Counted from the first letter of the stretch, positions 26,020 through 49,445 are shown. The stretch is DNA of 64,000 nt from an uncultured bacterium (GCA_903933735.1 CAIZLB010000006.1:3750-67749); one strand, 5' to 3'. Numbers and translations are program-made. Notes: generated by a model from the sequence alone, not told the origin.

Positions 26020-26077
26020 TATATTGCCTACCCCGTCTAAAAAGGTCGAATTTATCAACAATTAGAAGTACATCGAA

Positions 26078-26440
26078 ATGAAAGCGAAAACCAGATTTGT
26101 CCCAGCCACTCACAGGGATACGTTCCATACGAGCTTCCACGGATATCTGCATGCGTCCTATCAGGAGCTTGTGGATAAGTTAGGAATGCCGAATGACAGA
26201 ACCAAAGAGGGCGAATGGATATCGGGTGACGGAAAAGTTCGGGTCGAATGGTCCTTCAAATCCACGCATGAAAAGCGTCCTATGGTACTTACCATCTACG
26301 ACTACAAAGACCCGCGTCCGATCAATGAAGTGAACCAGTGGCATGTCGGCATAAAAGGCGAAGCCCAACAGGTAAACGAATTATTCGCACAAAAAGGACT
26401 GTATCCAACAGCACTCGAAATTCACAAGAAGTACCGCTAA
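26078..26440 (+). CDS. hypothetical protein (island-associated, higher GC)
   Basis: 120-aa ORF; no recognised domain. Confidence 0.4.
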   Translation: MKAKTRFVPATHRDTFHTSFHGYLHASYQELVDKLGMPNDRTKEGEWISGDGKVRVEWSFKSTHEKRPMVLTIYDYKDPRPINEVNQWHVGIKGEAQQVNELFAQKGLYPTALEIHKKYR

Positions 26441-26446
26441 CTAAGA

Positions 26447-26497
26447 CATTGTCCCGAAAAGGGATCGGCCGGTGCACACGGCCTGATGCTACCAATG
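26447..26497 (+). repeat. left copy of 50-nt structured direct repeat (candidate att core or RNA element)
   Basis: CATTGTCCCGAAAAGGGATCGGCCGGTGCACACGGCCTGATGCTACCAATG; about 85% identical to 60446-60495 with compensatory changes in the central hairpin. Confidence 0.6.
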
Positions 26498-26767
26498 CCC
26501 TACATCCTAAAAAAACAAAGGGTCGTGACCTATCGGAAAAACGGCATACCGGCCGTGATCCTTGAAGGGAAATGGCTCACAAAACTATATCGCATTAACG
26601 TCGGTGACGTGATCGACATAGACCATAAATGGCCACACGAGATACGAATCACAAAGAACAAAAAGCTCAGCAAGTTAAGACAAACAAAACTGAAGGAGCG
26701 AGAAGAACTTCGTAAGCAATATCTCCAAAAGCTAAAAAATAACCATGACTACACAAGCAAAAACTAA
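26486..26767 (+). CDS. putative AbrB/MazE-like (swapped-hairpin) DNA-binding protein
   Basis: VVTYRKNGIPAVILEGKWLTKLYRINVGDVIDID resembles the looped-hinge helix fold; start ATGCTACCAATG lies inside the repeat. Confidence 0.35.
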   Translation: MLPMPYILKKQRVVTYRKNGIPAVILEGKWLTKLYRINVGDVIDIDHKWPHEIRITKNKKLSKLRQTKLKEREELRKQYLQKLKNNHDYTSKN

Positions 26768-27047
26768 AGCATTAGCTCGAGAAGCGCTAAGTCTAGTGAA
26801 AGAGAAGGCTCCGGCAATAGTCGATGAGCAGATTCTTGCGCACATGCTTGATGAGGTCGCTGAATTTACAAGCGACATCATGGGCAAGCTTACTAACTTA
26901 GACGCTGACAACGAAACTAACATCACGATGGCTCACGGAATCATCTATGACGGACTTCTCAATGAAGTCGTCACTCAAATTAGAGACACAATGCATGCCG
27001 CAGCCGGAAAGAGGTTAGACAAGTTCGAAACATTATCAAAAAAATAA
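26745..27047 (+). CDS. hypothetical protein
   Basis: 100-aa ORF in phage-like early region. Confidence 0.35.
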   Translation: MTTQAKTKALAREALSLVKEKAPAIVDEQILAHMLDEVAEFTSDIMGKLTNLDADNETNITMAHGIIYDGLLNEVVTQIRDTMHAAAGKRLDKFETLSKK

Positions 27048-27163
27048 AATCCCCCCGTGAGGAGAGACTGAACCCTAGATAAGTACATTCTCCCAAAAAT
27101 TTCACGGAAAGTCAAAAGAGAGATCGCCGCCGTAACCGGCGCTTTCTCTCTTCAACCAAAACT

Positions 27164-27703
27164 ATGGAAGAAAATAAAACACTTAATTTGATACCAAACA
27201 GCACACAGCTCCCAAACCTCATCCTCGATCTGGTGGTCCCTCTAGTACCAGAGTCTGAAGCTAGATGCCTGATTTACATATGCCGAAGAACGTTCGGATT
27301 CCACAAGGGTTCCGATCGCATCAGCTTCTCTCAATTTACAGATGGAATAAAAGATCGCAGAGGCAACGTGCTTGATTACGGAACTGGTCTATCAAAGCAG
27401 GCGGTAGCAGTCGGCTTGAAGAACCTCGCACAGGCAGAAGCCATTCGGGTGATGAAAAGCAAGAAGGGAAACGTGTACGAAATAAACCTGCATATGGATG
27501 TGGATAAGGTAGTCAATTTAATAGACCAGTCTAGAAAGTTGACCAAAATCGGTCTAAAAAATAGACAACGCTTGTCCTACAAAGTAGACACACAAAACCT
27601 AGGAAATAAAGAGAAACAAAGTATTAGGGATCCTGTTGAAAACTTATCCACAGGAATAAGAGAACTTGCTCGAAAGATGACCATTAACAAATTTAGAAAT
27701 TAA
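27164..27703 (+). CDS. putative winged-helix replication or replisome-organiser-like protein
   Basis: Weak resemblance to phage replisome-organiser N-terminal HTH; position upstream of RusA. Confidence 0.3.
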   Translation: MEENKTLNLIPNSTQLPNLILDLVVPLVPESEARCLIYICRRTFGFHKGSDRISFSQFTDGIKDRRGNVLDYGTGLSKQAVAVGLKNLAQAEAIRVMKSKKGNVYEINLHMDVDKVVNLIDQSRKLTKIGLKNRQRLSYKVDTQNLGNKEKQSIRDPVENLSTGIRELARKMTINKFRN

Positions 27704-27708
27704 AACCA

Positions 27709-28113
27709 ATGAAAAAAACAATCCAATTCACAATAAAGGGAAACCCGGAAGACCTTGAAGGTAATCCGGTCCCATACGTTCGTGTGGTAGGCCGAGCGTT
27801 GTGGTTACCACACGCAAAGAAATACCACGCATGGAAAGAATATGTCCGCAGTATCTTCTACCGAAACAATCCAGAATTCTCCTCTGAAAAGGAGCAGCCT
27901 CTCACAACAAAAATATCAGAGCGTGCACGGATGTCGATAACAATCTTCTGGGTAAACGGAGTGCATGCCGATCCTGACAATGTGTTCAAGGGTCTTGCAG
28001 ATGCTTTGTTTGCCAATGACAAGTTTCTCGATGGAGCATTCGAATCTCACTATGCGTCCGATGGTAAAGGGCGGGTCGAAGTGGAGATAACGCTCAATCA
28101 TCGAAGCCAATGA
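27709..28113 (+). CDS. rusA: RusA-family Holliday junction resolvase
   Basis: About 130 aa; HADPDNVFKGLADALFANDKFLDG matches RusA catalytic D-x-D-N region. Confidence 0.6.
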   Translation: MKKTIQFTIKGNPEDLEGNPVPYVRVVGRALWLPHAKKYHAWKEYVRSIFYRNNPEFSSEKEQPLTTKISERARMSITIFWVNGVHADPDNVFKGLADALFANDKFLDGAFESHYASDGKGRVEVEITLNHRSQ

Positions 28114-29012
28114 AGTACTTCAGTTTATTCTCCGGCATCGGAGGGTTCGAATTAGGAATAAAACAAGCATATGAAATCCTGCGCACTAAGAACAAGAAAC
28201 AGAGGGTTCAAGGAATTGGAAATAAGAAAAGATCATCTAGCGAATTCCATCACCTCGGTCCAGACGGATTCACTTGTGTTGGTTACTCGGAGATCGACAA
28301 ATATGCAATCCAAATCTATGAAAAACACTTTGACCACAAAAACTTCGGAGACATCAGAAAAATCAAACCTAGGTCTATACCTGACTTTGACCTTCTTATC
28401 GGAGGCTTTCCTTGCCAGTCTTTCTCAGTCGCAGGGAAAAGAAAAGGATTTAAAGATACACGCGGCACCCTCTTTTTTGAGATTGCTCGCATCATCGCTT
28501 CCAAGAAGCCAAAGCTACTTCTCCTTGAGAACGTTAAAGGGCTTCTCTCTCACGATGTCGGGCGCACGTTCGGAACTATCCTCTCCTCATTGGATGAACT
28601 GGGGTATGACGTGCAGTGGGAAGTGCTTAACAGTAAGAACTTCGGGGTCCCTCAAAACAGAGAGCGAGTGTTTATTGTCGGACATCTTAGAAAAGACTCC
28701 AGACCGGAAATATTTTCTCTCAGAAAGGATGACACAGGGAATAGTAAACAGCATGTTTCGAAGTCGCAAACCACTCGAGGTGTCCGGAATATGTCAGACC
28801 TTAAAAGTAGGTGGCGACACTCCATGCGTATTAGAAAACTCACACCAAAAGAATGCGAAAGGCTCCAAGGATTCCCAGATGGATGGACTGAAGGAGTAAG
28901 CGACACGCAGAGGTATAAGACCCTCGGAAACGCAGTGACGGTAAATGTAGTCGCCGAGATTGTAAAACGAATCATCGGCATTGAAAAGAATAATTATGTA
29001 CAACGCAAATAA
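28110..29012 (+). CDS. DNA (cytosine-5)-methyltransferase
   Basis: Motif I FSLFSGIGGFELG, motif IV GGFPCQSFS, ENV motif LLLENVKGL. Confidence 0.88.
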   Translation: MKYFSLFSGIGGFELGIKQAYEILRTKNKKQRVQGIGNKKRSSSEFHHLGPDGFTCVGYSEIDKYAIQIYEKHFDHKNFGDIRKIKPRSIPDFDLLIGGFPCQSFSVAGKRKGFKDTRGTLFFEIARIIASKKPKLLLLENVKGLLSHDVGRTFGTILSSLDELGYDVQWEVLNSKNFGVPQNRERVFIVGHLRKDSRPEIFSLRKDDTGNSKQHVSKSQTTRGVRNMSDLKSRWRHSMRIRKLTPKECERLQGFPDGWTEGVSDTQRYKTLGNAVTVNVVAEIVKRIIGIEKNNYVQRK

Positions 29013-29379
29013 TCCAAGACACAAATTAACTCCCGACCAAATAAAGCATCTTCAGCGTTGTTTTGAGGATGAAGGGTGGAGGATTAATTGGCTCTCGGTT
29101 TATTTTGGAATCTACAAAAAGTCGGTCCTCTTTCACATCAGGTACAACGGCTGGGTCCGACGGATGAAAGTCCAACGGCACATGCCCAAGGAAATAGCGG
29201 ACATATACCGCGAACGCAGAAAGCAAAAGTACGAAATAAAACTTAAAGGAACGTACGAATTTATCAAGATGTCGGCTGAGCAGCACAGGATGGAAGGCTG
29301 CGGGCATGTCCGATGGGTTAAACGCTGCAGTCTATGCGGCCAGATACTCGGATCGGATGCGACAGACCATAAACATTAA
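28981..29379 (+). CDS. hypothetical protein (Cys/His-containing)
   Basis: 132-aa ORF; C-terminal CGHVRWVKRCSLCGQ possible zinc-binding motif. Confidence 0.35.
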   Translation: MKRIIMYNANNPRHKLTPDQIKHLQRCFEDEGWRINWLSVYFGIYKKSVLFHIRYNGWVRRMKVQRHMPKEIADIYRERRKQKYEIKLKGTYEFIKMSAEQHRMEGCGHVRWVKRCSLCGQILGSDATDHKH

Positions 29380-29384
29380 TCATC

Positions 29385-29795
29385 ATGAAAAATATAACCA
29401 ACAAAACAAAAAAAGAATTGCATCCTAATCCACTCAACCTATCGGCAAGATTCCTTGCCGCACGTCCTGATCTTGTCGGTCCTTGGATTATCGGAGCACA
29501 TAGCCTTCTTCCAATATTTAAAACTGAGCATAAGGGCGCACTCGTTGCATACCTCGAAACTGTCCAAAGGGAATTTTTTGCTGCACTCGAACATTTTTGG
29601 AAAAAGAAGCATGCCGATCAGAAGATTACATACACATTCGGAACTATCTGCCGAAACTCCAAGGGCGAGGAGCGACTCGTGATCGGTATAACTCCAACAG
29701 AAAAAGGAAAGCCAACCTACGAGTACATGGATGACAACGGCAAAGTCGGCGCATGCAACGAGTCGAGCATGATGAGCTGGATGGAAAAAAGATAA
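29385..29795 (+). CDS. hypothetical protein
   Basis: 136-aa ORF. Confidence 0.35.
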   Translation: MKNITNKTKKELHPNPLNLSARFLAARPDLVGPWIIGAHSLLPIFKTEHKGALVAYLETVQREFFAALEHFWKKKHADQKITYTFGTICRNSKGEERLVIGITPTEKGKPTYEYMDDNGKVGACNESSMMSWMEKR

Positions 29796-29805: not shown

Positions 29806-31134
29806 ATGCAAATCACTGACGTAAAAAAATACGAAAAAAACGCAAAGGAGCATCCGGGCTTCCAACTCGAGAAAATCGCAAGCTCGATAAAAGCATTCGG
29901 ATGCAAGCAACCAATCATCCTCGATAAGGATAACGTTATCGTTGTTGGTCATGGTCGCTTTATTGCAATGACTGAACTGCTCGGCTACACGCTCATGGAA
30001 GCAAAAGCATTCACGAGAAAGGGTGAGCCTGTTATCCCCTACATGCTCATTGATGATTTGAGCGATGAAGAAATAAAAGCATATCGAATCGCCGACAACC
30101 AACTCAATGCTCTCACAGGACAAGACATGATGCTGATCACAGAGGAACTAAAGTTGCTCGACGAGTCAGGATTCGATATCACTCTCACCGGTTTTGACCG
30201 TGACATCATTCTTGAAGATGACGAGCAAGACGATGTGGTCCCTGAAGAACCGAAAGTGCCAAAAACAAAACTAGGAGATGTGTATCAGCTCGGTCCCCAC
30301 ACTATCATTTGCGGAGACTCAACAGACAAAGATGCATACGAAAAGACGGTCCAGCAAAGAAAAGCGGACTGCATATTTACCGATCCTCCATACAACGTGA
30401 ACTATTCAGGCCGTGGAAAAAATACGAGCGAAGGAATCATGAACGATGACATGGACTCCGAAGCGTTCGATTCATTTCTTGAGAAAGCATTCGGATGTCT
30501 TAGTGATGTGGCAAAGACTGGTGCAGGTTGGTATGTCTTTCATTCAACATCAACACAGGCGCAATTCGAAAAGGCACTCAAGAAGTTTGGAATGGCAATC
30601 CGGAATCAACTCATTTGGAATAAGCCAACCGCATCGATGGGATGGGGTGACTACCGATGGAAGCATGAGCCATTCTTCTACGCATCAAAAGACGGAACCA
30701 AAACAGTCTTCTACGGTGACCGCACACATTCAACAATTGTGGACTTTCATGACAGCGAACAGAAACTCATCAACTGGGCAAAGCGACAAAAGAAATTGGA
30801 AACCGAAGGCAAACTCACGATATGGACTATGAAGCGAGACAAAGTAAATGAGTACAAACATCCAACACAGAAACCTGTGGAGCTTATTACTTACGCACTC
30901 CTCAATAGCTCGAAAGCCGAGGACTTGGTGGTCGATCCATTTCTCGGAAGCGGAAGCACACTCATCGCATGCCAGAAGACAGACCGTGTTTGTGCAGGAA
31001 TAGAGCTCGACCCGAAGTTCGTAGACGTGATTGTTCAGCGATGGGTGGATTTCACCGGCATCGAACAGGTGGTCCGAAATGGGCAGCCCGAAAACTGGCC
31101 GAAAACCATCTATGAGCATGAACACCAAGAATAA
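29806..31134 (+). CDS. ParB-like nuclease N-terminal domain fused to amino-type DNA methyltransferase (N6A/N4C)
   Basis: ParB-N motif KQPIILDKDNVIVVGHGRF; MTase catalytic motif FTDPPY; AdoMet motif DPFLGSGST. Confidence 0.8.
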   Translation: MQITDVKKYEKNAKEHPGFQLEKIASSIKAFGCKQPIILDKDNVIVVGHGRFIAMTELLGYTLMEAKAFTRKGEPVIPYMLIDDLSDEEIKAYRIADNQLNALTGQDMMLITEELKLLDESGFDITLTGFDRDIILEDDEQDDVVPEEPKVPKTKLGDVYQLGPHTIICGDSTDKDAYEKTVQQRKADCIFTDPPYNVNYSGRGKNTSEGIMNDDMDSEAFDSFLEKAFGCLSDVAKTGAGWYVFHSTSTQAQFEKALKKFGMAIRNQLIWNKPTASMGWGDYRWKHEPFFYASKDGTKTVFYGDRTHSTIVDFHDSEQKLINWAKRQKKLETEGKLTIWTMKRDKVNEYKHPTQKPVELITYALLNSSKAEDLVVDPFLGSGSTLIACQKTDRVCAGIELDPKFVDVIVQRWVDFTGIEQVVRNGQPENWPKTIYEHEHQE

Positions 31135-31720
31135 TGAAAACAATCAGCCGAAAGTGCTCCTTTTGGAAGCTCCTAAGTACGTTCCAAGGAGTGAGGAAGC
31201 TTCACGCCCCGTAGAGGCAAATAAGGGCATTTCCGAGGCTCCTTCCGACCCCTCGGATGCCCGTAAATACGGGCAAAATACGGGTAATTTAGATAGAGAC
31301 CCTGTCACAGGGCAGTTCCTCCCAGGGAACTCAGGTAAGCCATTGGGAGCCAGACATTTCAGCACAATGTTCAGAGATTACGTCCGTGAGGCTGGTGCCA
31401 TTACCAAGGATGGGCAAAAGGTTGGATTCGACAAGTTGATAGTGAAAAAGATGGTGAGTATGGCAGTGGACGGAAACCTTAAGGCGGCAGGAATGGTACT
31501 CGATCGTGTCGATGGAAAAGTCCCTCAAACATTCGAGGTAAACAAGACTGAGAGAATAGGAATCCTTGTAATGACCCAACAGGAAATCGAAGACCATGAA
31601 TCAATATTCAAACGAAAATATGCAGAACCAAATACCAAAGACAATAATACCTCCAGTGACGGAGCACGGAATGAAGACACTCCGAGAGTCACGGAAGGAA
31701 GTGCGTACGAAACACACTAA
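31112..31720 (+). CDS. putative terminase small subunit
   Basis: Position immediately upstream of large terminase; basic N-terminus; start chosen at ATG 31112 to avoid overlap with upstream gene. Confidence 0.35.
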   Translation: MSMNTKNNENNQPKVLLLEAPKYVPRSEEASRPVEANKGISEAPSDPSDARKYGQNTGNLDRDPVTGQFLPGNSGKPLGARHFSTMFRDYVREAGAITKDGQKVGFDKLIVKKMVSMAVDGNLKAAGMVLDRVDGKVPQTFEVNKTERIGILVMTQQEIEDHESIFKRKYAEPNTKDNNTSSDGARNEDTPRVTEGSAYETH

Positions 31721-33299
31721 GGAACACTTCGGGTACTTTCTCGCTTATTACCTTTCTAGGTATGTGAGGTGTGAGTACGCGGATTTTCACTACGAAATGA
31801 TGGCAGATGTGCATGACCTGTTGGATTTGAAAATAAGAGAGATTGCATGGTTCATGTTTGGAGAAAGTGCAAAGACAAGCTTTGTAAAAGGATTGATTCT
31901 GTACATGATTGCTTACGACATAGAGCCATACATCAACGCAGATGCGTTTGATAGTACAAACTCTGAACGTATCCTGTTCGACGTTGTGTGGGAGCTTCAG
32001 ACCAATAAAAGATTTATCGAAGACTTCGGAGAGAAATACAACACCACTCGAAGTAAAGATGAGGTAACCCAAAAGAGAGTAAAAGACTTCATCACCAATC
32101 CCATGAAAGATGACGATGGAAACATTATCAAGGAAGGAATACGTGTCGAAGCACACAGTACACAGGAATCAGTCCGAGGGCGTGTGCACGGAGCGATGCG
32201 TCCAGGCTTCGTGTTGCTGGATGACTTCGAAACCAAGAAGACTCTCAAAAGCGAAGCGTCAACAAACCAGATACGTACGCACATCCAAGAATTCAAGCGA
32301 GGTCTCGACTCTGCAAGACGGAGGGTTATATACCTCGGTAACATCCTGTCTGAATACGGAAACGTGCAAAGCATCATAGAACGTGGAAAGCATGATCCAG
32401 AATTGAGAGTGCGAATCGTTCCGATTTGCCAAGGAGACCTGATCACAGGAATACACACCCCAACATGGCCTGAACGATGGGTGATGACGGATGAGGAAGC
32501 CAAAGCAACAGGAAAGGTAAGCATCGAAAGTAAGAGGCGATCAATGTGGACACCAGAAGAAGGTGATATGGACTTTCAAGCAGAAATGTTGTGCCAACCA
32601 ATAGACGAATCAAAAGCAATCTTCAAGCGTGACTGGTTCATGCCAATAAGTTGGGATGACCTTTTGCAAAAGAAACTAGCGGCTTACGTGACACTTGATA
32701 CACCGAGTCGAAAAGAAGGAGAGGTTAGCAAAGACGGAGACTACGTGGGCATTTGCATCAACTGGGTAGACAGGGAAGGCAAATGGCATCTGAAAGCATG
32801 GAGAGAAAAGCTTGGTCCAACAGCGATAATCGAGAAGATGTTCGGTCTCTACGCATTCTTACTGCAGGCAGGTACACCACCGGTGAAGTTCGGATGGGAA
32901 GATACAGCGTTCACAAGAGGTCTTGAACCAATGCTAAGGCATGAGCAAAGAATGAGACAGATATTCCTACCACTCATGTGGCTCAAACATGCAGGAAGGT
33001 CGAAAGAGGATCGAATAAGAACAGGATTGCTGTACAGATACGAAACAAGAAGTGTCTATCACCTCAAGGGGGAATGCAAAGACTTGGAAAACGAGCTGAT
33101 GCGCTTTCCTGATGCAGACCATGACGATACGAGCGATGCAACAGCGTATCAAAGCGATATTGCACGTCCTGCGGGAATCGATAAGCCAAGAGATGCAAGA
33201 CCAGAGCCGATGATAGATACGGCATATGGCAAGGTAAAACCTGCATATGAAGATGAATTCTACGATGAAAGCCCTCAATACCCAGACATTGGGATATAG
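31596..33299 (+). CDS. terminase large subunit (start uncertain; possibly Met at 31671)
   Basis: Deviant Walker A FGESAKTS, Walker B-like GFVLLDDFE, C-terminal RNase-H-like nuclease acidic residues (VTLDTP...DADHDDTSDA). Confidence 0.6.
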   Translation: MNQYSNENMQNQIPKTIIPPVTEHGMKTLRESRKEVRTKHTKEHFGYFLAYYLSRYVRCEYADFHYEMMADVHDLLDLKIREIAWFMFGESAKTSFVKGLILYMIAYDIEPYINADAFDSTNSERILFDVVWELQTNKRFIEDFGEKYNTTRSKDEVTQKRVKDFITNPMKDDDGNIIKEGIRVEAHSTQESVRGRVHGAMRPGFVLLDDFETKKTLKSEASTNQIRTHIQEFKRGLDSARRRVIYLGNILSEYGNVQSIIERGKHDPELRVRIVPICQGDLITGIHTPTWPERWVMTDEEAKATGKVSIESKRRSMWTPEEGDMDFQAEMLCQPIDESKAIFKRDWFMPISWDDLLQKKLAAYVTLDTPSRKEGEVSKDGDYVGICINWVDREGKWHLKAWREKLGPTAIIEKMFGLYAFLLQAGTPPVKFGWEDTAFTRGLEPMLRHEQRMRQIFLPLMWLKHAGRSKEDRIRTGLLYRYETRSVYHLKGECKDLENELMRFPDADHDDTSDATAYQSDIARPAGIDKPRDARPEPMIDTAYGKVKPAYEDEFYDESPQYPDIGI

Positions 33300-35390: not shown

Positions 35391-35732
35391 ATGACTGAAT
35401 CAAACAATGTAAAATTCGTAGAAGCTGAAGGCAAATGGCTATGGAAGCGATACGACGAAAACGGATCGGTAATTTACCGAAGCCCATTATTTAATACCGA
35501 GCGTGAAGCTCGAGAGGACTACGATATCAACGGACGCAAGCAGAATGATGCGGATGAGACTAACCAGGAAGCAAAAGATATTCAGGTCGAGAATACTGCC
35601 CCTGACCGTGGTATCACTGGAGATACTACGATAAATCATCCTGAAGACGAAAACACAGCAGGAACTGCGACACTCGACGAAGGTCAGGAGCGTCAAAACG
35701 AAGATAACGGCGTAGGCCAAGCAACAATCTAA
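35391..35732 (+). CDS. hypothetical acidic protein
   Basis: 113-aa ORF. Confidence 0.3.
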   Translation: MTESNNVKFVEAEGKWLWKRYDENGSVIYRSPLFNTEREAREDYDINGRKQNDADETNQEAKDIQVENTAPDRGITGDTTINHPEDENTAGTATLDEGQERQNEDNGVGQATI

Positions 35733-36106
35733 TGCTGAAATTTAATTATCAGATCAAGAAGAAGGCGAAGGATAAGGGAGACTACCGAATCACCAAGCAT
35801 GGCCAGATGGCAGAGTTTTCATTGCGTGAGCTGAACCGGAACATCGAACAGATCCGAAAGCAGGCAAAAGAAATGGAAGCGAATGCAAAGCTCCAAGAAG
35901 CACTCGCAGATAATATCCGTAGAGCCAATCCTGACCTCATGGCATACATGAAGAAGCTGACACCCAAGAAGCGTCATGCACTCATCATGCTCGCAATCCA
36001 AGAAAACAAAGCGAGACAGTTCAAGGATCAGGAGAAAGAAGCCAAGAGCATCCTTCGCACGATTACTAATGAGGACAAAGAAGTCCGTAAACAACTAAAG
36101 CTATGA
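35732..36106 (+). CDS. hypothetical coiled-coil protein
   Basis: 124-aa ORF, charged/helical. Confidence 0.3.
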   Translation: MLKFNYQIKKKAKDKGDYRITKHGQMAEFSLRELNRNIEQIRKQAKEMEANAKLQEALADNIRRANPDLMAYMKKLTPKKRHALIMLAIQENKARQFKDQEKEAKSILRTITNEDKEVRKQLKL

Positions 36107-36498: not shown

Positions 36499-36662
36499 AG
36501 AATTTATCAAGAAAAGATAAAGAAATTATAAAGATAAAACCACTGGTAAGCCGGTGGTTTTTCTTGTTCAAAAGTAATGCACCATTTTTTGCTTTCTGAT
36601 GCCATCAAACTAATAAGCATAGAGGGGCCAACCTCTTATTAATAAAAAGGTTAATTGCGCTA

Positions 36663-39536: not shown

Positions 39537-39539
39537 ATT

Positions 39540-41481: not shown

Positions 41482-42258
41482 ATGGCATCAAAACTCACAA
41501 AAGTCGTCGCAAACTTCGAGACATCACTCGCAACTAAACTCGGAAACGGTGCCGTTTCAGGTGCTTTGACTAGCGTAATTGATAAGAACGGCGTAGCACT
41601 TCCCGATGCAAAGTACTGCATGATCGTTGATCGAGGAACCGGAGATGAAGAACATCTACTCTTCGACCTTACCGGGAATGCGATAGCAAATATTATCAGC
41701 ATTTCACGACAAGGAGCTCAGACACCAGGAGTGCAAAATCTAAATGGGCATCGTGCGGGAGCAAAGTGTTATCTTACCGACTTCGTTAATTTGAAAATTA
41801 TCGTCGATATGTTGAACGGTGATGAGCCGTTCAACGGATCAAAACCTCTTAAATACGATTCAGCGCCCGCACTTAGTGATCCTCGTCATATTCCCGATAA
41901 GGAATATACGGATTCGGCACTCGCAGGAAAAGCCGAGCTTGATGGCAATAATGTCTTCACTGGAGAAAACTCCTTTACTCAATCACCGAGTATTCCAAAT
42001 GCTGCGACATCAAATCAGCCGGTCACATTGTCACAACTTATGGTCGCGGCACTCGTGGGAATTCCTGCAGGTTTTGAAAACGTGGACATTGTCAGGAATC
42101 AAGACGGATGCGTTCGATCCATTCATGACAACGTGAACGGAAAAACATATGTCATGGAGTACGACCCAAATGGATATGTACAAGCCATTTATGACGGATC
42201 GACAAAGACAAAAATAACCAGTGTCGACGGCCGACTTATTAGCAAAGTAACAAATTAA
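41482..42258 (+). CDS. hypothetical structural protein
   Basis: 258-aa ORF. Confidence 0.3.
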   Translation: MASKLTKVVANFETSLATKLGNGAVSGALTSVIDKNGVALPDAKYCMIVDRGTGDEEHLLFDLTGNAIANIISISRQGAQTPGVQNLNGHRAGAKCYLTDFVNLKIIVDMLNGDEPFNGSKPLKYDSAPALSDPRHIPDKEYTDSALAGKAELDGNNVFTGENSFTQSPSIPNAATSNQPVTLSQLMVAALVGIPAGFENVDIVRNQDGCVRSIHDNVNGKTYVMEYDPNGYVQAIYDGSTKTKITSVDGRLISKVTN

Positions 42259-42268
42259 AAATAAATTT

Positions 42269-44365
42269 ATGAGCGTAACACTATTTACAGACAAAAAACC
42301 ACAAGCTGTTTCTCCAAAAGGTGAATGGCTTTTCCCTCAAGTGATGATGATGGAAGTAAACCGCCTCGGGCAGGTGAGGTATCCAGCAGTAAAGGCCAGG
42401 GGAACTCTTACTCTTGCCCTTAATGTATCAAACGGCGAAACAGTACTCATTGGTTCAAAGACATATGTCTTCGTGAATACGCTCACGGGTGTAGACGGGC
42501 AAGTGAAGATCGGAGCCTCGAAAGAGGAATCAATTGCGAACCTTATCGCAGCAATTAATCTTGATGGAACTCCAAACTCCCAGTACACAACACAAACAAC
42601 TCTGCATCCTGCTGTGTATGCAAAGGTAGGTCCGACCACGGCAAAATTACTTGCTGTCGCTAAAGTGGGCGGTGTTTCCGGCAACTCAATCGCTCTTGGC
42701 GAGACTCTTGTTGGTGCTGGAAACCAATGGGATGCTGCAACCCTTGGAACGACTGTGGCCGGTGCAGACGAATCTGATGCTGACTCGCTCATTCACCCTC
42801 ACTACTACGGAGGCGTGAACAACAACTCTGGTCAGCAGTACAACGTTCGTGAACTTTATTATCACGGAAGTGGAGAAGAAGATGCATCTGACGATAGGTT
42901 GTGGCAGCACAGACACGCTGTAATGAATTTCCCAATGAAGGAATACAAGCTTCTTGCTGGCGCAACCAGAAAATTGTTCCTGCCGAACCACTTAGATCGA
43001 CTTGTAAAACGAATCGACGTTCTGAATGTTAAGTCATTCATCAAGAGACCAGAATGGCAATCAACAATCTCATCACCTTTTGCGGAAAGCACAAGCAACA
43101 TCACATTTCATACAGTAGAAATGGGTGATGACAGATTTGCACTTTTCTACCGACAACAGGCGGGAACATCAGGAATCTACGTCATCATTGGACAACTTGC
43201 ATCAAACGGAATTATTACATGGGGAACTCCCACAATTATCACGACACTCGACCAGTTCGATTCAAACTTTGATGCTGTCCTCGTAAGTACAAATAAAATA
43301 CTCTGCACGTTTGGACATGGGGCAAGTACGTTTACTCATACAGCCTCAATTACTGTATCGGGAACTGTGGCATCGGTGAACACTCCGGTCCAAGTTGTTG
43401 CCACAAACTTCACTTGGAAAAAGCTCTGCAAGCTAGATAATGACAAAGCACTTCTTGCTGTATTTACAGGAACAACATTATCGATTTATGTTGTCACTCT
43501 CTCGGGTACTGTACCTTCGTACGGATCAGTAGTGAACCAAGCAACATCACAATATCCGCATATCGTTCAAAATGGAACCGATAAGGCACAACTGGTCTTC
43601 TGGGACAGCACAGCATCCCGTGTGAAATCCTCTGTGATTACTGTGACAGGTACGACTCCAACAATTCAAGCATCTATTGTAATTGGATATGAAGGCAGCT
43701 TTTCTTACAAAGCAAATAATCTTGTTCAAGTAGCAACCGATAAGTTCGTCTACTACCACTACAACGGAAATCTTCACCCATACCGCGGTCGTGATCGAGC
43801 AAAATTTGTCATGCTCAATATCACAGCAAACACGACAGCCATTTCACATACACTCGAGATGAGAAATGGTGTATATGACGGAAACCTTAACTACTTCAAA
43901 AAGTTAGATGCAAATAACTGGATGATTTGGAACAAACCACAGGGTCGTGTAGGAAAGATGACACTTGATCTCACAAATAACCAGATGACAATCAATGATA
44001 TTCCTTATCAACATAGTATCTGGGATAACGGTACCTATCAGACAAACTTCATGCAAAAAAGCGCGGAAACAAATAATATCCAGCGCTCTCCAGAACCAGC
44101 AATTACAACAAATGGATGGGTGTTCGTTGCTACTGACAACAACATAAATGGAGGAATCGTGGCGTGGACTGACAAAACATTCAGCTTTGAAGTTTATCTC
44201 GATGATGAACTTGTCGGTACATACAACAAGACAGTTCCAGGTGCTATCGAAGGTGTAATTGTTCGAATCCCACTCAACCGATTTGAAGTGGCACTAAAAA
44301 TCAAGAATCCAGGAGCGGTCGACCTGTTCTTCATGATGCCTAACCTCGTAACTTCAATCGAATAA
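42269..44365 (+). CDS. hypothetical large structural protein (tail-fibre or receptor-binding candidate)
   Basis: 698 aa, S/T/G-rich beta protein. Confidence 0.3.
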   Translation: MSVTLFTDKKPQAVSPKGEWLFPQVMMMEVNRLGQVRYPAVKARGTLTLALNVSNGETVLIGSKTYVFVNTLTGVDGQVKIGASKEESIANLIAAINLDGTPNSQYTTQTTLHPAVYAKVGPTTAKLLAVAKVGGVSGNSIALGETLVGAGNQWDAATLGTTVAGADESDADSLIHPHYYGGVNNNSGQQYNVRELYYHGSGEEDASDDRLWQHRHAVMNFPMKEYKLLAGATRKLFLPNHLDRLVKRIDVLNVKSFIKRPEWQSTISSPFAESTSNITFHTVEMGDDRFALFYRQQAGTSGIYVIIGQLASNGIITWGTPTIITTLDQFDSNFDAVLVSTNKILCTFGHGASTFTHTASITVSGTVASVNTPVQVVATNFTWKKLCKLDNDKALLAVFTGTTLSIYVVTLSGTVPSYGSVVNQATSQYPHIVQNGTDKAQLVFWDSTASRVKSSVITVTGTTPTIQASIVIGYEGSFSYKANNLVQVATDKFVYYHYNGNLHPYRGRDRAKFVMLNITANTTAISHTLEMRNGVYDGNLNYFKKLDANNWMIWNKPQGRVGKMTLDLTNNQMTINDIPYQHSIWDNGTYQTNFMQKSAETNNIQRSPEPAITTNGWVFVATDNNINGGIVAWTDKTFSFEVYLDDELVGTYNKTVPGAIEGVIVRIPLNRFEVALKIKNPGAVDLFFMMPNLVTSIE

Positions 44366-44369
44366 AACA

Positions 44370-45938
44370 ATGAATTCCTACACGATACAGTACGGCGATA
44401 CCTTAAGTGGAATCGCATCAAAGACGGGTAAGAGCGTTCAGGAACTGATGCGTCTCAATCCGTCTATTACTGATCCCAACAAAATATATGCTGGGCGCTC
44501 TTTGTCGTTGGGAAATTCAACACCCGCACCCGCATCTACACCTGCTCCTGCATCAAATAATTCAAAGCAGACTATTGCTCAGGTGGCAAAAGTAACGGTC
44601 CCGACTTATGTTGAAGATCCAACAACGACACAAATAGGAAAAAGCTACAAGTCCCAAGCTACTGACACCGTAAACGAAGAAGCTGTCAGATCAGCTACAA
44701 GAGCACGTATTCAGGGGCAAATTGACGCCATAAATGCCGCTGTGAGCGATCAAATAGCAAACTTCAGGAATACCACAGGGAAGAATCGCCAAGGCCAATC
44801 GTACGCCCTCGCAGCAGCTGGTGGCCGAATTGGAAGTGCAACTGGAGAGGCGGAATTTAGGACAACAGAAGACTATAACAATCAAGAGGAGCAGACATAC
44901 CGAAGTGAGGCGAATGTGAAGATCTCACAATTACTAGGTGCTTCAATGCGGGATGCTCAGGCAGAAATTGAAGCGAAGCGTACTGCAATCAAAGAAGGTG
45001 CTGAAAAGTACTTCCAGTTCCTCGAGACACAAGGTCAACGAAAGAAAGATCAGATCACATCATTCCTCAAAAACATGCTCGCACTTGGAGTTGATCCAAA
45101 AGAAATTAGTGATGCTGACTTTGAAAACATTCAAGATCAGTATGGATTCAGTAAAGATCAGCTTGTCTCGTTGTTTGGTGATCTGAAAGCGCAAAAAGTA
45201 GCTGCTGATCAGGAAGCACAAATGGATGCAGCTGATCTTGATCAAAAGAAAGCAACTACAGAAAAAACACGAGCTGAAATAAATCAATTTGATCTTAGTG
45301 AGGGTCAGGCTCGATATGTTTATGATCCTGAAACCCGGAAGACGACAGTCATTGCTTCAAAAGCAAAAACGTATGCACCAACAGGTGGTGGTACTTCATC
45401 TGACCCTGTTATTGATTCATGGGTAAGTCAGATTAATGGCGGAAAGGCTACGATCGCAAACGTACCGGCGAACCTTAAGAACGCTGTCATCACCGCACTC
45501 AATAACTCGACACCACAAGATTCAGGCTATCAGATAAGCAATCTCAAAGGCGCACTCGATAATGTACAAAAGCTCAAAGGTGCGGCAGGTCCTAGTGCAA
45601 TAAGCAGAAAGCTCGGTGACGTTTTTGTTGGTGATTCTTCATTTAGACAACTTGAGGCGTACGTAGATACTGTTAAATCAAATCTTCTTACTCTGGTAAC
45701 AGATCCAAATATTAAAAAGTTCTTCGGTCCGCAGATGTCTAACCGTGACGTTGAGCTCATGACTTCAACTGCGTCATCTCTTGATGCGCAACGCTTAAGT
45801 CCTGAACAGATTCAGGCAGAAGTAGATAAGGTCAATGCCTTCTTGGTGAAATACGAAGCTGCCCGCAATAGCAGTGGTCTTGTCGATACCACAGCTACAC
45901 CAGAACAAAATGCATTAAGGACTAAATATCAATACTAA
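44370..45938 (+). CDS. LysM-domain protein with PAPAS linker and coiled-coil
   Basis: N-terminal LysM (YTIQYGDTLSGIASKTG...IYAGRSL). Confidence 0.6.
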   Translation: MNSYTIQYGDTLSGIASKTGKSVQELMRLNPSITDPNKIYAGRSLSLGNSTPAPASTPAPASNNSKQTIAQVAKVTVPTYVEDPTTTQIGKSYKSQATDTVNEEAVRSATRARIQGQIDAINAAVSDQIANFRNTTGKNRQGQSYALAAAGGRIGSATGEAEFRTTEDYNNQEEQTYRSEANVKISQLLGASMRDAQAEIEAKRTAIKEGAEKYFQFLETQGQRKKDQITSFLKNMLALGVDPKEISDADFENIQDQYGFSKDQLVSLFGDLKAQKVAADQEAQMDAADLDQKKATTEKTRAEINQFDLSEGQARYVYDPETRKTTVIASKAKTYAPTGGGTSSDPVIDSWVSQINGGKATIANVPANLKNAVITALNNSTPQDSGYQISNLKGALDNVQKLKGAAGPSAISRKLGDVFVGDSSFRQLEAYVDTVKSNLLTLVTDPNIKKFFGPQMSNRDVELMTSTASSLDAQRLSPEQIQAEVDKVNAFLVKYEAARNSSGLVDTTATPEQNALRTKYQY

Positions 45939-45939
45939 A

Positions 45940-48282
45940 ATGCTTACAGAATCCAGAAGACAACAACTTGATAAGATCGTTCAGCAAATGGTCGCTAACA
46001 AAGAAAGCGATGCGAATATTCAATTTGTCGTAAATGACTTCAAACAGAAATATGGAAATGAAGTTCAAGCTCCAACAACTCAAGAGCCAGAGAAAAAAAG
46101 TCTTGGCTCAAAGATTTGGAGTGGAACGAAAGCTGTAGGCAATGCGCTCATCTCAAGTGAGAAAAAATTCGGGAAGAGCATTGCAGATGCTTTGCCCTCG
46201 TTTGTGCCTGGGAGTGCAGCATGGACAAATAAACAGAATGAGGAACTCATGGCACAAAGTCAGGAAATTACTGACAATCTTTTGAAAACCATCAAGCAGA
46301 AAAAAGAAAGAGGCGAAGACACATCTCGTCTCGAAGTGGCACTTCAGCAGCACCTAAAAGATACAAGCCAGCCCCCGATTGATATCAATGAGACAAATGC
46401 GAGTGTAAATAAAACAGCGAAGCAAATATTCGGAGAAGGTCTTGGTGTGGCTGTAGATATTCTTTCAGCAGGATCATACGGTAAAGCAGCTCAAGGTGCT
46501 CAAAGCGGAAAACTTCTTATTGCAGGAAAAACATCTGGGAAAGTTGCAACTGTTCTCGGTAAAGCAGGGATAGGAAGCACAGTCTCACCTGCAGCCGGAG
46601 CATTACCAAGCATTATCGGTGGAGGCACAAAAGCTCAAGCTTTTCTTAAGGGTGCATGGCAAGGTGCAAAACAAGGTCTGACGTCCGGTTCTGTATGGGG
46701 AACAGCCCAAGGAGCAACCCGAGCAATGCAAGACAACAAAAGTAATTCGGAGATCGTCGAAGATGCTCTTACTGGCGGTGTGATTGGGGGTGCAGCTGGT
46801 GGAACTGTCGGAGCGATTGTTGGCGGTACAAGCGGATATTTAAATCGTCGAAGGGAAATCAACAACATGCTTAAACCTTCAATGACTCCCGATGAGACTA
46901 TCAATTCGCTTCATGACGAAATTGCTAAGCATGCTGATGAAGATTCATTCAAAGCTGCAATCAAAAACGGCGATTTGAGCATTGATCAGGTTTATCAAAA
47001 AGATGGTGCTCTTAATCCCGAACTTGCTAAGGGGCGCATTGATGATATTGCAACAAATTTGGATATGAATGTTCCAGGTGCAGGAGAAAAATACCGAACA
47101 CTCATTGATCCTAATAAAACAACCTTTGACGAATTGATCTCAAAGGCAGATGACGTGATTGATGAAAGTAGAAAGATTCCAGCTGATGTAATTAACTATT
47201 CTGTAGGTGCGGACGGTAAAAAAGTTGTTGATGCAAAAGCAACAGAAGCTCTAAAGTCAGGTATTGCAGACCAAGATGTTGCCTTTATTAAGAACGCCTC
47301 TCCTGAAGATAAAAAAATATTTGATAAAGCTATGAAAGTTGCGGAGCAGGCATCAAAAGATAAGACATACTCACGTCAGCCAATCGAACAGGCTGGAAAA
47401 ATACTCATTGAACAGGCTGATACAGTCGAAAGCGCACGTCAAAAAGTTGGTCAAGATCTTGGTGTTTTGAGATCGAAACTTGGCAACACCCCTGTCACAA
47501 TCACCGATACAGCTGATATTTTCTATAAAGACCTTGATGATGCCGGAATAAAAATAACTAACGATGGTCTCGATTTCTCAAACTCTAAGTACGCAAATGT
47601 TCCTAAGGTCCAGAAGATAATCGAAAGCGTTCACCAGAGAATCTCCAATCTTGGAGAACAATCAAACGTAAAGACTGTGGACATGATCAGACAGCAACTC
47701 GGAACTGAAGTTGATCTCGGAACTCTTGAAGGAAACCTCGATAAAAGTGCAAAGCGAATCCTTCAAAAAGTATATGGAGGACTGGGAGACAATATCGCAT
47801 ACATCGATACCGATTATGCGGAGCTTTCAAATGAGTATTCAAAGCTTACTAGTGCGATGGATTATTTCCAGCGTGCTCTCGGAAAAGACTTTGAAGCAAC
47901 AAAGATCGATTCATCACTTAGAGCCGGAGAGGTTGGCCGAAGAATTCTCGGTAACGCTTCATCACGCCCTCTATCGATTGTGCAGAATATCCAGGATCTC
48001 GCAAGGCAGTATGGATATAACAAGAATATCGATGCAAGAAGTCAGTTCTTATTTGCAAATTTTCTTGAAGACTTGTTCGGTACGACTCAGTCACAAAGTC
48101 TCCAGCAGCAAATCACAAAAGGTGTGAATACCGCAGAGGAAGCAACCGGAGCACTTACCGATGTCGCCACAGGAAATGCCTCAGGATTGCTTTCAAAGGC
48201 TGTAAGGAAAGGAATAAACTTAGTACGAAACATTACACCTGAAAGACAAATCGAAGCTGTGCGAGCTCTAATCTCTCAATAA
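45940..48282 (+). CDS. large virion protein with Gly-rich hydrophobic segment (tape-measure-like or internal protein)
   Basis: 780 aa; GGVIGGAAGGTVGAIVGGTSG segment; helical. Confidence 0.3.
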   Translation: MLTESRRQQLDKIVQQMVANKESDANIQFVVNDFKQKYGNEVQAPTTQEPEKKSLGSKIWSGTKAVGNALISSEKKFGKSIADALPSFVPGSAAWTNKQNEELMAQSQEITDNLLKTIKQKKERGEDTSRLEVALQQHLKDTSQPPIDINETNASVNKTAKQIFGEGLGVAVDILSAGSYGKAAQGAQSGKLLIAGKTSGKVATVLGKAGIGSTVSPAAGALPSIIGGGTKAQAFLKGAWQGAKQGLTSGSVWGTAQGATRAMQDNKSNSEIVEDALTGGVIGGAAGGTVGAIVGGTSGYLNRRREINNMLKPSMTPDETINSLHDEIAKHADEDSFKAAIKNGDLSIDQVYQKDGALNPELAKGRIDDIATNLDMNVPGAGEKYRTLIDPNKTTFDELISKADDVIDESRKIPADVINYSVGADGKKVVDAKATEALKSGIADQDVAFIKNASPEDKKIFDKAMKVAEQASKDKTYSRQPIEQAGKILIEQADTVESARQKVGQDLGVLRSKLGNTPVTITDTADIFYKDLDDAGIKITNDGLDFSNSKYANVPKVQKIIESVHQRISNLGEQSNVKTVDMIRQQLGTEVDLGTLEGNLDKSAKRILQKVYGGLGDNIAYIDTDYAELSNEYSKLTSAMDYFQRALGKDFEATKIDSSLRAGEVGRRILGNASSRPLSIVQNIQDLARQYGYNKNIDARSQFLFANFLEDLFGTTQSQSLQQQITKGVNTAEEATGALTDVATGNASGLLSKAVRKGINLVRNITPERQIEAVRALISQ

Positions 48283-48327
48283 AGTAATACACCCTTTTTT
48301 GTCGCAAGGGACATCTATGCTTTAGGT

Positions 48328-48609
48328 ATGGAAAAACAAGAGACGTTCAAGAAATTTTTATATAACCAGGTCTCTCTGGTAATTGGAATCGTCGGCGTGT
48401 CATTCGGAATCTTTAACATGCTCCAAGCACCAAAGAGTGATATTCAGGTTATCGAAGCTCTCAATAATATTCGAGATAACCACATTCATACAATCGAAGA
48501 AAACGTAAAACGACTAGACCAAGCGAACACCGAACGCTATCGGGATACAAGCGAGCGATTGATAAAAATTGAAACAATCCTCGATGAACGATTACCAGCT
48601 AAAAAATAA
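48328..48609 (+). CDS. putative holin-like single-TM protein
   Basis: One TM (VSLVIGIVGVSFGIF), directly upstream of endolysin. Confidence 0.35.
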   Translation: MEKQETFKKFLYNQVSLVIGIVGVSFGIFNMLQAPKSDIQVIEALNNIRDNHIHTIEENVKRLDQANTERYRDTSERLIKIETILDERLPAKK

Positions 48610-48612
48610 TTT

Positions 48613-49218
48613 ATGAATATATCATTTCAACAAACACCAAATTACTCAGTTGGTCCTACAAAGAAAGCCATTGTGGTTTTGCATTTTACGCTTGGTTCAT
48701 ATGGCGGCGCAGTGAGCTGGCTCTCAAATGCGAATAGACCAAACCGATCCTCTTCACATTTTGTGATTGGTAGAAAGCCTGGTGAAATAGTCCAGCTAGT
48801 AAAAATTACTGACATAGCATGGCATGCAGGAGTAATAAGTAACCCAAACGATAGAGCAAAAAAAGTAATGCTCAAGAATCTGGATGGCTCATGGGTCAAT
48901 CCAAATCAATACACTATAGGAATTGAACTCGCGGCAGGATATGACGTGGATCAGGATGGTGTTGTTGAATCAAACGAAAATGACATAACCGAATGGCAAT
49001 ATGACCAACTTATAGAACTTATAAAATCATTTTCAAACAATCCGGAGACGGCATTCGTACTTGATCCAAAAAATATCATCATCCATGGAGATATAACCGA
49101 CTATAAAGAAAAACCAGAAAATGTACGAAATGAAGTAATAAAAAAACTATTCACTCAGTCGGTCCCAAACAGGGAAGTGATAAAGGCACAAATTATTAAT
49201 CTATTAAACCAATTATAG
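48613..49218 (+). CDS. N-acetylmuramoyl-L-alanine amidase (Amidase_2/PGRP) endolysin
   Basis: SSHFVIGRKPGEIVQLVKITDIAWHAG pattern of Amidase_2. Confidence 0.8.
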   Translation: MNISFQQTPNYSVGPTKKAIVVLHFTLGSYGGAVSWLSNANRPNRSSSHFVIGRKPGEIVQLVKITDIAWHAGVISNPNDRAKKVMLKNLDGSWVNPNQYTIGIELAAGYDVDQDGVVESNENDITEWQYDQLIELIKSFSNNPETAFVLDPKNIIIHGDITDYKEKPENVRNEVIKKLFTQSVPNREVIKAQIINLLNQL

Positions 49219-49220
49219 CT

Positions 49221-49397
49221 ATGGAAATATTAAAATCAGCATCAAAAGTAGTTTTTATTCTGATGGCAGTGGCGACCATTGCTGGGATGTTTGTGGGTAG
49301 AATTGATCCTAAAGATTTTATGATCCTAGCATCAATGGCATTCTCATTTTACTTTGCAAATAAAGGGGAAACGAATGTCCCGTTTGCCGGTAAATAA
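49221..49397 (+). CDS. small membrane protein (58 aa, not in the provided ORF track)
   Basis: ATG 49221; MEILKSASKVVFILMAVATIAGMFVG... one TM; last gene before GC drop. Confidence 0.35.
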   Translation: MEILKSASKVVFILMAVATIAGMFVGRIDPKDFMILASMAFSFYFANKGETNVPFAGK

Positions 49398-49445
49398 ATT
49401 CTCTGTTCAAAACACTAAAAAAAGTGTAGAATTATAGAGTAATTT

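Follow-up and report, generated by a model that had tools for sequence, protein, structure and literature searches.

What element occupies the block of raised G+C (GC) content in a 64,000-nucleotide stretch of an uncultured bacterium (GCA_903933735.1 CAIZLB010000006.1:3750-67749, hereafter the window, whose positions are counted from its first letter), and where does this element end? An initial annotation made from the sequence had delimited a prophage-like module at about 26.0-49.4 kb, carrying its own C5 cytosine DNA methyltransferase (MTase), a ParB-MTase fusion and a RusA resolvase, and had left the virion type unclear. A prophage with these three genes is indeed present. Its right boundary, however, had to be moved from 49.4 kb to about 61.95 kb, a region which brings in defence cargo and a lysogeny module with an integrase. 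It is highly probable that positions 25916-61946 hold a single temperate podovirus, about 36.0 kb long and integrated at ychF in the chromosome of a Paceibacteria-like member of the Patescibacteria.

Extent and integration site of the prophage

The GC content is 0.443 at 26041-49400 against 0.346 at 1-25930 and 0.362 at 61951-64000, and its left edge is sharp (~26.0 kb), in agreement with the initial annotation. The fall at 49.4 kb is also real (0.362 at 49401-57480). It is however an internal module border and the element ends elsewhere, because GC climbs again to 0.425 in 57481-61950. The sizeable open reading frames (ORFs) of 26078-51597 are all on the plus strand. The inserted DNA, located between ychF and pheA, spans 25916-61946 (36.0 kb) and is composed of three parts: a 44%-GC module with the early, virion and lysis genes, extending to 49.4 kb; an 8-kb defence cargo with host-like GC; and a 42.5%-GC right arm carrying an S49 head-protease-like gene, a TrpR-like helix-turn-helix (HTH) gene and a Xer-like tyrosine integrase gene. 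The higher-GC block represents only the left two-thirds of the complete 36-kb prophage. A length of 34-37 kb is common among contigs carrying homologues, in agreement with the 36.0-kb span. Since the GC of relatives (0.40-0.47) is similar to that of the prophage, the mismatch with the host, for which the initial annotation had suggested recent acquisition or a broader host range, looks like a family trait.

Using pheA as query, an empty site was recovered on a metagenome contig (L114; L numbers designate the loci compared). There, ychF (83% amino acid (aa) identity) and pheA (65%) are separated by 16 nt, against 36 kb in the window. No empty site was found in species-representative genomes, in which YchF relatives are at most 64% identical and lack synteny. 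The crossover core GAGTTTARGAT, located in the last ychF codons, is common to the attachment sites attL and attR, to the attP sites of relatives and to the attB-like empty site. The left arm of attL is identical to the ychF of L114 at 25 of 34 positions and its right arm follows the attP right arm of L131, L133 and L097; the left arm of attR is identical to the attP left arm of L131 at 28 of 34 positions when both are anchored on the core. The ychF tail displaced to attR is still in frame (…EFKI-stop, 61948-61950) and lies 18 nt ahead of the pheA start (61969). The sequence predicted for the unoccupied ychF-pheA site is …GATGTTGTGGAGTTTAAGATTTAGTGTGTTAATATAACCCTCATG. At the other end, the succession of ychF mimic, terminator and AAAGGTCGAAWTTA recurs in L085, L096, L097, L131 and L133 and at the A/B junction of IMG/VR contig 3300025323_000513 (c513).

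A second copy of the ychF 3' end, exact or with up to three mismatches, was not found, and attR surfaced only through the attP of a relative. L097 carries 46 nt with 3 differences from the window ychF end, which are read as an attP because a stop codon and unrelated sequence precede them. The best local match of this probe in the 49-64 kb part of the window is 61919-61949 (26 of 31 positions), between the integrase and pheA. Its score (37, against a maximum of 35 among 200 shuffles) makes it the only match above the shuffled background. An inverted match of the sequence downstream of ychF, at 61864-61927, partly overlaps the direct attR match and was judged to be due to chance.

The arrangement of relatives places the integrase and the attachment site in the same unit as the phage genes. 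In L131, an integrase 91% identical to that of the window is followed by a small lysine-rich ORF, attP, terminator, left-end sequence and the early genes of the family, and the order integrase, attP, early genes is observed on L131-L133, which is how a circular or tandem form would read. The integrases of L132 and L133 (at least 68% identity) likewise adjoin ychF mimics, and the c513 integrase (44%) is paired with a GAPDH target. For c513, 45.5 kb were rebuilt from three loci (L085/L101/L113). It reads: GAPDH 3' end, phage module, 8 kb of different genes, S49 gene (92% aa), g64, g65, g66 (83%), the RNA-like motif described below with a tyrosine recombinase gene (44%), then a GAPDH 3'-end mimic, terminator and left-end sequence leading into a second phage of the family. 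The right-arm homologues (68-92% aa) thus follow phage A of c513 in the same order at a different chromosomal site. The mobile unit therefore includes the S49-to-integrase arm, and each unit starts with a copy of a host-gene 3' end. The c513 contig carries two different family phages in tandem at the GAPDH 3' end, with a GAPDH mimic at their junction.

Comparison of these sequences suggests that the XerC/D-like integrase of the element would recombine attP with the 3' end of the host ychF, by a chemistry that is presumed here. The attP site would carry a mimic of the last ychF codons, then a terminator, with GAGTTTARGAT as crossover core. After integration, phage sequence would complete ychF and the original tail would be shifted 36 kb to the right, beside pheA. 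The prophage runs from the early operon through packaging and head genes, short tail, lysis cassette and swappable cargo to the right arm with the integrase, and a shared RNA motif may couple integrase and early operon expression through terminator read-through. Integration of the IMEX type (integrative mobile element exploiting Xer, using host XerCD at dif without a recombinase of its own) was ruled out: the recombinase is inside the insertion and travels with the phage, and the target is the ychF 3' end. No tRNA or tmRNA that could serve as integration target was found in the 64-kb window, where Rfam gave nothing at gathering thresholds and only chance-level matches at E values up to 10.

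A more restrictive reading would confine the mobile element to 26.04-49.4 kb (~23 kb), without integrase and with host DNA to its right. It agrees with the drop of GC from 0.44 to 0.36 at 49.4 kb and with the synteny among relatives: 16 IMG/VR contigs with portals 78-93% identical are syntenic with 26.1-49.4 kb, and in all of them this order stops after 49397. The return of GC to 0.425 in 57.5-61.95 kb, the adjacency of ychF and pheA in the empty site, the S49-to-integrase block that accompanies the phage at a different host locus and the integrase that adjoins attP and early genes in L131-L133 all speak against it, and no att-like repeat was found at 49.4 kb. This short version is largely refuted and is highly improbable. 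Some of the same observations bear on a tandem pair sharing one att site, in which an integrase-less phage (26-49.4 kb) would be lent the integrase of an integrative defence island (49.4-61.95 kb). The sole integrase is in the right part, the cargo differs in GC and tandem arrays are known in the phage family (c513). However, no internal att copy was found between the two parts, the same right arm stands behind a related phage at a different locus, the integrase, attP, early and TerL genes of the same family are contiguous in L131, and the only candidate for a prohead protease belongs to the right arm; such a pair is very unlikely. A chimera of a phage contig and a Patescibacteria contig, a risk raised by the initial annotation, could be suspected from the abrupt composition change at 26.0 kb and from the exact TerL protein, a look-up of which returned no record elsewhere. 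A chimeric join nevertheless appears unlikely because the junctions obey att-site logic (the phage mimic completes ychF and the displaced tail lies beside pheA). Capsid homologues of 92-93% are moreover embedded in Parcubacteria/Paceibacterota contigs of 378-700 kb, and an assembly origin of the locus is scarcely credible.

The remaining alternative accepts the anatomy of a 36-kb podovirus prophage and considers it defective or domesticated, unable to excise or to form particles. The att cores differ by one base, and one relative contig lacks scaffold, capsid and adaptor genes, which means either that defective variants exist or that this contig is mis-assembled. On the other hand, all family-conserved ORFs have the full length of their counterparts in relatives (78-99% aa), the integrase and lysis genes are intact, as are the two att arms, and attP-bearing and phage-length contigs of close relatives are common. 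Loss of function is for these reasons unlikely. Several observations weigh against a single intact temperate podovirus. The attL and attR cores differ by one base (G/A) and their identical run is only 7 nt long, and the empty-site contig comes from a related organism (83% YchF), another strain than that of the window. The cargo has host-like GC and its gene set is found in none of the relatives compared. The S49 protein is equally near cellular SppA (NCBIfam 147.8 bits, just under the cutoff of 155), the four large virion ORFs g49-g52 and g66 have no assignment, and the scaffold, small terminase and holin calls are made by position or hydropathy only.

Table 1. Features of the prophage, by position in the window
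Feature	Position	Strand	Basis and remarks
attL crossover core GAGTTTAGGAT	25916..25926	+	inside last ychF codons (stop 25928-25930); four-way att comparison
Phage-supplied ychF end, intrinsic terminator (~25994-26021), left-end sequence CTAAAAAGGTCGAATTTATCAAC (26037-26059)	25927..26059	+	
g28, 120 aa, accessory	26078..26440	+	no Pfam/PHROG match; in some relatives only
Motif copy 1	26447..26497	+	start of early operon; closing stem CAUUG/CAAUG, hairpin UCCC-GAAAA-GGGA
g29 (93 aa) and g30 (100 aa), small early proteins	26486..27047	+	47-70% aa in relatives; no family match
Replication initiator, phage O-like	27164..27703	+	PHROG 18020 (7e-12), PHROG 678 (2e-11)
RusA-like Holliday junction resolvase	27709..28113	+	PHROG 6537 (4e-13); Pfam RusA 20 bits, under cutoff
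C5 cytosine DNA MTase	28110..29012	+	Pfam DNA_methylase (3.9e-89); PHROG 116 (7e-103)
g34 and g35, family-conserved	28981..29795	+	49-78% aa in c513 and L131
ParB-like N-terminal domain fused to N6/N4 DNA MTase	29806..31134	+	PHROG 498 (2e-130)
Small terminase candidate	31079..31720	+	position only; start 31079, 31112 or 31118 uncertain
Large terminase (TerL)	31596..33299	+	PHROG 38 (1e-39)
Portal, SU10 type	33354..35369	+	Pfam SU10_portal (3.6e-13), 49 bits, cutoff 30
Three small ORFs g41-g43 and scaffold candidate (36663-37574)	35391..37574	+	position only; conserved in relatives
Major capsid protein, predicted HK97 fold, 400 aa	37619..38821	+	AlphaFold2, predicted local distance difference test (pLDDT) 81, predicted template modelling score (pTM) 0.78
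Head-to-tail adaptor, SU10 type, 209 aa	38907..39536	+	Pfam SU10_adaptor (3.6e-7), 31.3 bits, cutoff 27
Tail nozzle (predicted beta-propeller), 633 aa	39540..41441	+	AlphaFold2, pLDDT 87, pTM 0.83
g49 (258 aa), g50 (698 aa), g51 (522 aa, N-terminal LysM), g52 (780 aa)	41482..48282	+	four virion ORFs
Lysis cassette: holin-like, one transmembrane segment (48328-48609); Amidase_2 endolysin (48613-49218); small membrane protein (49221-49397)	48328..49397	+	
Variable defence cargo, GC 0.362	49446..57477	mixed	Pfam, PADLOC
Two ORFs (49446-51089, 51046-51597)	49446..51597	+	no recognised function
N6_N4 MTase	51594..52403	-	Pfam; PADLOC MTase_II
Dam-class MTase	52405..53424	-	Pfam; PADLOC MTase_II
PDC-S06 AAA_13 ATPase	53541..55817	+	PADLOC PDLC04894 (1.7e-140, full length); Pfam AAA_13 (3e-110)
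DUF2779 Cas4-like protein	55801..57306	+	weak Cas4 match
51-aa ORF	within cargo		
Right arm: S49/SppA-like peptidase, g64, YerC/TrpR-like HTH, g66 (347 aa)	57498..60251	+	conserved
Integrase leader: sigma-70-like promoter (60394-60422), motif copy 2, further hairpins, terminator-like hairpin and U run	60394..60652	+	
Motif copy 2	60446..60495	+	integrase leader, between promoter and terminator
Tyrosine integrase, XerC/D-like	60653..61570	+	Pfam Phage_integrase (7e-26); PHROG 1 (1.4e-32)
Small lysine-rich ORF, 54 aa, between integrase and attR	61586..61750	+	75% homologue at same place in L131; no family match
attR: phage left arm, core GAGTTTAAGAT (61936-61946), displaced ychF end	61919..61950	+	

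Virion genes, defence slot and right arm

The structural ORFs match phage families and folds, and none was drawn to a non-phage family. Both the portal and the adaptor exceed the cutoffs of the SU10 Pfam families. Structures of the capsid and nozzle proteins were predicted from alignments of database homologues. The best Foldseek matches of the capsid model are the podovirus capsids of A4, Sf6, CUS-3 and T7 (E 9e-12 to 4e-10), the predicted HK97 fold bearing out the capsid call of the initial annotation. For the nozzle model, every one of the 18 best matches is a nozzle or tail-hub chain of a podovirus (Pa223, A4, SU10 7z4b, VP1, PhiM1, P22 gp10 and T7 gp12), with E values from 3e-17 to 3e-8. 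The virion type, previously left unclear, is resolved by the SU10-type portal and adaptor and by these predicted folds as that of a putative podovirus. The initial annotation was correct in noting that tail tube, sheath and tape measure genes could not be recognised: no ORF has a Pfam or PHROG match to them (g49-g52, 41482-48282, lack assignment), because this would be a short-tailed phage, in which 38907-41441 encodes adaptor and nozzle. Portal, scaffold candidate, capsid, adaptor and nozzle genes follow one another as in T7-like structural modules. Single-sequence searches of the PDB with portal, adaptor, nozzle, capsid, g50, g51 and g52 matched only the LysM domain.

Most other gene calls of the initial annotation (Rep-O-like, RusA, C5 MTase, ParB-MTase, TerL, portal, LysM, Amidase_2) are supported by Pfam or PHROG profiles; its "regulator" has no family match. 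The small terminase, scaffold, holin-like and small transmembrane calls correspond to ORFs named by position or hydropathy only. The ORF of the small terminase candidate is conserved over its full length in relatives (65-79% aa), better than the antisense ORFs of the region, which are a preference of the greedy gene call; its sole family match is a PHROG of unknown function. It overlaps the annotated TerL start by 125 nt (31596-31720) in a different frame, and one of the two starts is therefore probably mis-set. TerL itself is 22-26% identical to the nearest deposited phages (unrelated Bacillus, Rhizobium and Clostridium phages). No informative family match was obtained for g41-g43 and the scaffold candidate.

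The products of g49-g52 may be tail fibres, tail spikes or ejection proteins. The LysM protein g51 (44370-45938) is recognised by its Pfam domain (3.6e-12). The identity of g50 drops to 32-40% in relatives that keep 88-91% in the nozzle. For g52, the alignment with L101/L102 is limited to about 220 residues (59-62% identity), and with L105 it covers 733 residues at 83%. This variability of g50 and g52 suggests the pattern expected of receptor-binding proteins. In the lysis cassette, the endolysin matches Amidase_2 (Pfam 9e-18), and the holin-like protein and the final small protein carry one or two hydrophobic segments each according to hydropathy. A 20-nt element, AGTAATRCACC-N5-TTTTRC, is present at 36573-36592, 41437-41456 and 48283-48302; the genes that begin 45-90 nt further downstream are the scaffold candidate, g49 and the holin-like gene, respectively. 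Because it is conserved at equivalent intergenic places (L081, L082, L089, L094 and L105), it may be a candidate late promoter or regulator site.

In the early operon, g28 has homologues in L097/L098 (69%) and L083 (98%) and is absent from L085 and L096. The replication initiator also approaches Pfam Phage_rep_O (27 bits, under the cutoff of 28.7). The ParB-MTase fusion matches the ParB-like PHROGs 620, 930 and 8071 (1e-24 to 8e-37) over residues ~1-205 and Pfam N6_N4_Mtase (9e-35) over residues 188-410; with Pfam ParBc, an E value of 0.01 was not reached on this ORF. It is plausible that the two phage methylases would guard phage DNA against restriction during infection.

The region 49.4-57.5 kb is, on comparison with relatives, an apparent swappable defence slot. 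It occupies a constant position between the lysis genes and the S49 gene, and each relative carries a different restriction-modification or defence set there (L101:11194-18818, L102:11587-17772, L103:11918-16487). One set is composed of a ResIII helicase, two MTases, a NOV_C protein and a DUF3644 protein; another of a type III Mod and Res pair with a SIR2-like protein; and a third of another type III Mod and Res pair. In the window, the two cargo MTases (N6_N4 and Dam-class) match PADLOC MTase_II at 1e-49 and 3e-94. No restriction endonuclease was found beside them by Pfam, PADLOC, NCBIfam or PHROGs in the ORFs of 49446-51597. These restriction-modification and PDC-S06 genes may shield the lysogen from other phages.

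The S49 peptidase (57498-58367) matches PHROG 53, "head maturation protease" (3.9e-44), and is read as a probable prohead protease because no other protease candidate was found among the ORFs of the element. Its gene belongs to the lysogeny-side arm and is 19 kb away from that of the capsid, an unusual location for a prohead protease. The product of g65, a YerC/YecD TrpR-like HTH protein (NCBIfam 57.8 bits, cutoff 42.2), is a candidate regulator. The likely start of the integrase is the ATG at 60653, the mechanical ORF start being 60626. The protein is under every Xer equivalog cutoff of NCBIfam. Homologues at 52-60% occur across many Patescibacteria lineages on chromosomal and phage-sized contigs, and others at 46-50% on IMG/VR contigs of unrelated gene content. 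The 54-aa lysine-rich ORF lies at a place that would suit an excisionase or an accessory factor.

A structured RNA-like motif at the integrase and early operon

A motif of 50 nt occurs twice in the window, where 0 occurrences are expected by chance. It is found at the equivalent two places in relatives (L081:8-57, L083:284-334, L085:321-367, L096:228-274, L097:634-682, L113:11236-11281, L113:13616-13665 and L133:652-701), and L110 has a distant variant, closed by a CGCUG/CAGCG stem, upstream of its integrase. The fold is a three-way junction, in which a closing stem bears two hairpins, the first of them with a GAAA loop. The sequence of the second hairpin varies with its pairing kept, and the GAUGCUA stretch is invariant; in copy 1 the variable hairpin is accompanied by the single-stranded stretch GAUGCUAC. 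A covariance model retrieves 11 instances in 492 kb of loci. In the alignment fitted to this model, 90% of cells pair and 7 of the 14 pairs vary on both sides. None of 500 shuffles reaches the observed covariation score, and slid registers drop to 24-48% paired. With a small sample and an alignment fitted to the model, this covariation lends support without being conclusive.

In the integrase leader, the motif lies ~25 nt downstream of a TTGACA-17-TAGATT promoter and upstream of the terminator-like hairpin, whose U run is immediately 5' of the integrase start codon. For the leader stretch 60440-60585 a z score of -4.4 was obtained, and the layout of promoter, motif and terminator is also present in c513, L132 and L133. 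No promoter or downstream terminator was identified for the left copy (26447-26497). The motif has no match in Rfam, and a search of viral contigs with its exact pattern gave no further contigs beyond the relatives already compared. Two other identities were considered and rejected. An att- or dif-like site of the IMEX type, used by host Xer, would leave the integrase outside the repeats; moreover both copies are found together in individual phage genomes, covariation is seen in the hairpins and the true att sites lie elsewhere. A hammerhead or other known small ribozyme does not fit either, the core order being wrong by inspection and Rfam giving no match.

The most likely role would be that of a leader element controlling read-through into the integrase and early genes. 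Located at the start of the early operon and between the integrase promoter and terminator, the motif could therefore be a nut/put-like antitermination element or riboregulator. That it represents an undescribed cis-regulatory RNA of Patescibacteria phages, tying the integrase to early transcription in this way, is a tentative proposal to which we give less than even chances. If true, it would link integrase expression to early transcription and thus to the lysis-lysogeny decision. Like lambda nut (boxB) and HK022 put, the motif is present in two copies per phage and forms small stem-loops, one of which exposes a GAAA/GAAAA loop on a C/G-rich stem; in the integrase leader it has a promoter upstream and a terminator downstream. 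However it has no sequence relationship with nut or put and no Rfam family, and its three-way junction with a closing stem differs from them. No N-like protein, as for lambda nut, was identified in the element.

Host, relatives and known systems

The left flank encodes RecR, DnaB, CysRS, a 2278-aa GH43/Ig-domain protein and YchF, and the right end PheA (prephenate dehydratase). The closest YchF proteins (63-64%) belong to Candidatus Taylorbacteria, Paceibacterota and other Patescibacteria metagenome-assembled genomes (MAGs), among contigs taken from one genome per species. The 92-93% capsid homologues are carried by contigs of 378 to 700 kb assigned to Parcubacteria bacterium C7867-008 and Candidatus Paceibacterota. 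These similarities support a Paceibacteria-like Patescibacterium as the probable host, and the initial guess of a host from the Candidate Phyla Radiation (CPR) was well founded. Patescibacteria (CPR) have very small genomes, mostly without CRISPR. To our knowledge, almost no experimentally tractable phages exist for them.

Hundreds of capsid and nozzle homologues were found on MAG chromosomes and on 34-37-kb contigs. One relative, the 22.4-kb IMG/VR contig 3300035698_035397 (L081/L105), lacks the equivalent of window positions 36095-39787, which comprise g43, the scaffold candidate, capsid, adaptor and the first ~80 nozzle codons; either a true deletion or faulty assembly would account for this gap.

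The element is of an ordinary type, a temperate podovirus that carries its own tyrosine integrase and defence cargo, in a little-studied host. It shares with temperate P22-like and other lysogenic podoviruses an HK97 capsid, portal, adaptor and nozzle, with no tube or tape measure recognised, a tyrosine integrase beside attP, the replacement of a host-gene 3' end by a phage copy and an accessory or defence slot. In contrast to the P22 group, it targets the protein-coding ychF (GAPDH in relatives), its integrase is nearest the XerC/D clade and its host is a Patescibacterium; there is no detectable sequence similarity, the likeness of nozzle and capsid being at fold level only. Escherichia phage SU10 (Kuravirus) resembles it by the portal and adaptor families and by the matched nozzle chains (7z4b, 7z47). 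SU10 is however a lytic phage of ~77 kb with a prolate head, against 36 kb and a temperate lifestyle here, TerL has no SU10-like match and the nozzle is 633 aa long against about 910 aa. No phmmer match of portal, adaptor or nozzle to SU10 PDB chains was obtained that would indicate a wider relatedness.

P2 and P4 carry prophage-encoded defence hotspots. The cargo slot resembles these by its fixed backbone position and by the differing restriction-modification or defence systems among relatives. It differs from them in phage lineage, host and contents, which here are two type II MTases with partner ORFs and a PDC-S06 candidate system.

Paceibacteria prophages from groundwater MAGs average 43.7 kb and carry C5 cytosine methylase genes (PMC12455944), and a bulk survey of Patescibacteriota phages proposed that lysogeny is common in this phylum (PMC12911398). 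These prophages share with the element the host group, a similar length and C5 methylase genes. In the portions of the two articles considered here they appear as automated gene maps, and att sites, the virion type and a comparison of cargo slots, which the present analysis provides, are not given. The window locus provides a fully delimited example, with exact att sites, target, virion type, cargo slot and a candidate regulatory RNA before the integrase, and this RNA motif is the only part of the element that may be new. As the phage family is abundant, the locus could be a reference point when hosts are assigned, prophage boundaries called and defence-gene traffic studied in the phylum.

Two observations concern the host flank. 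The 2278-aa protein (13799-20635 region) is very large for an ultra-small genome and contains GH43, Big_7, Fn3_assoc, CHB_HEX_C and PKD-like domains; the protein encoded next to it has two PG_binding_1 domains. A 236-aa ORF (21509-22219, minus strand) has a GC of 0.51 inside the 0.35-GC flank and only a weak match to Gcw_chp.

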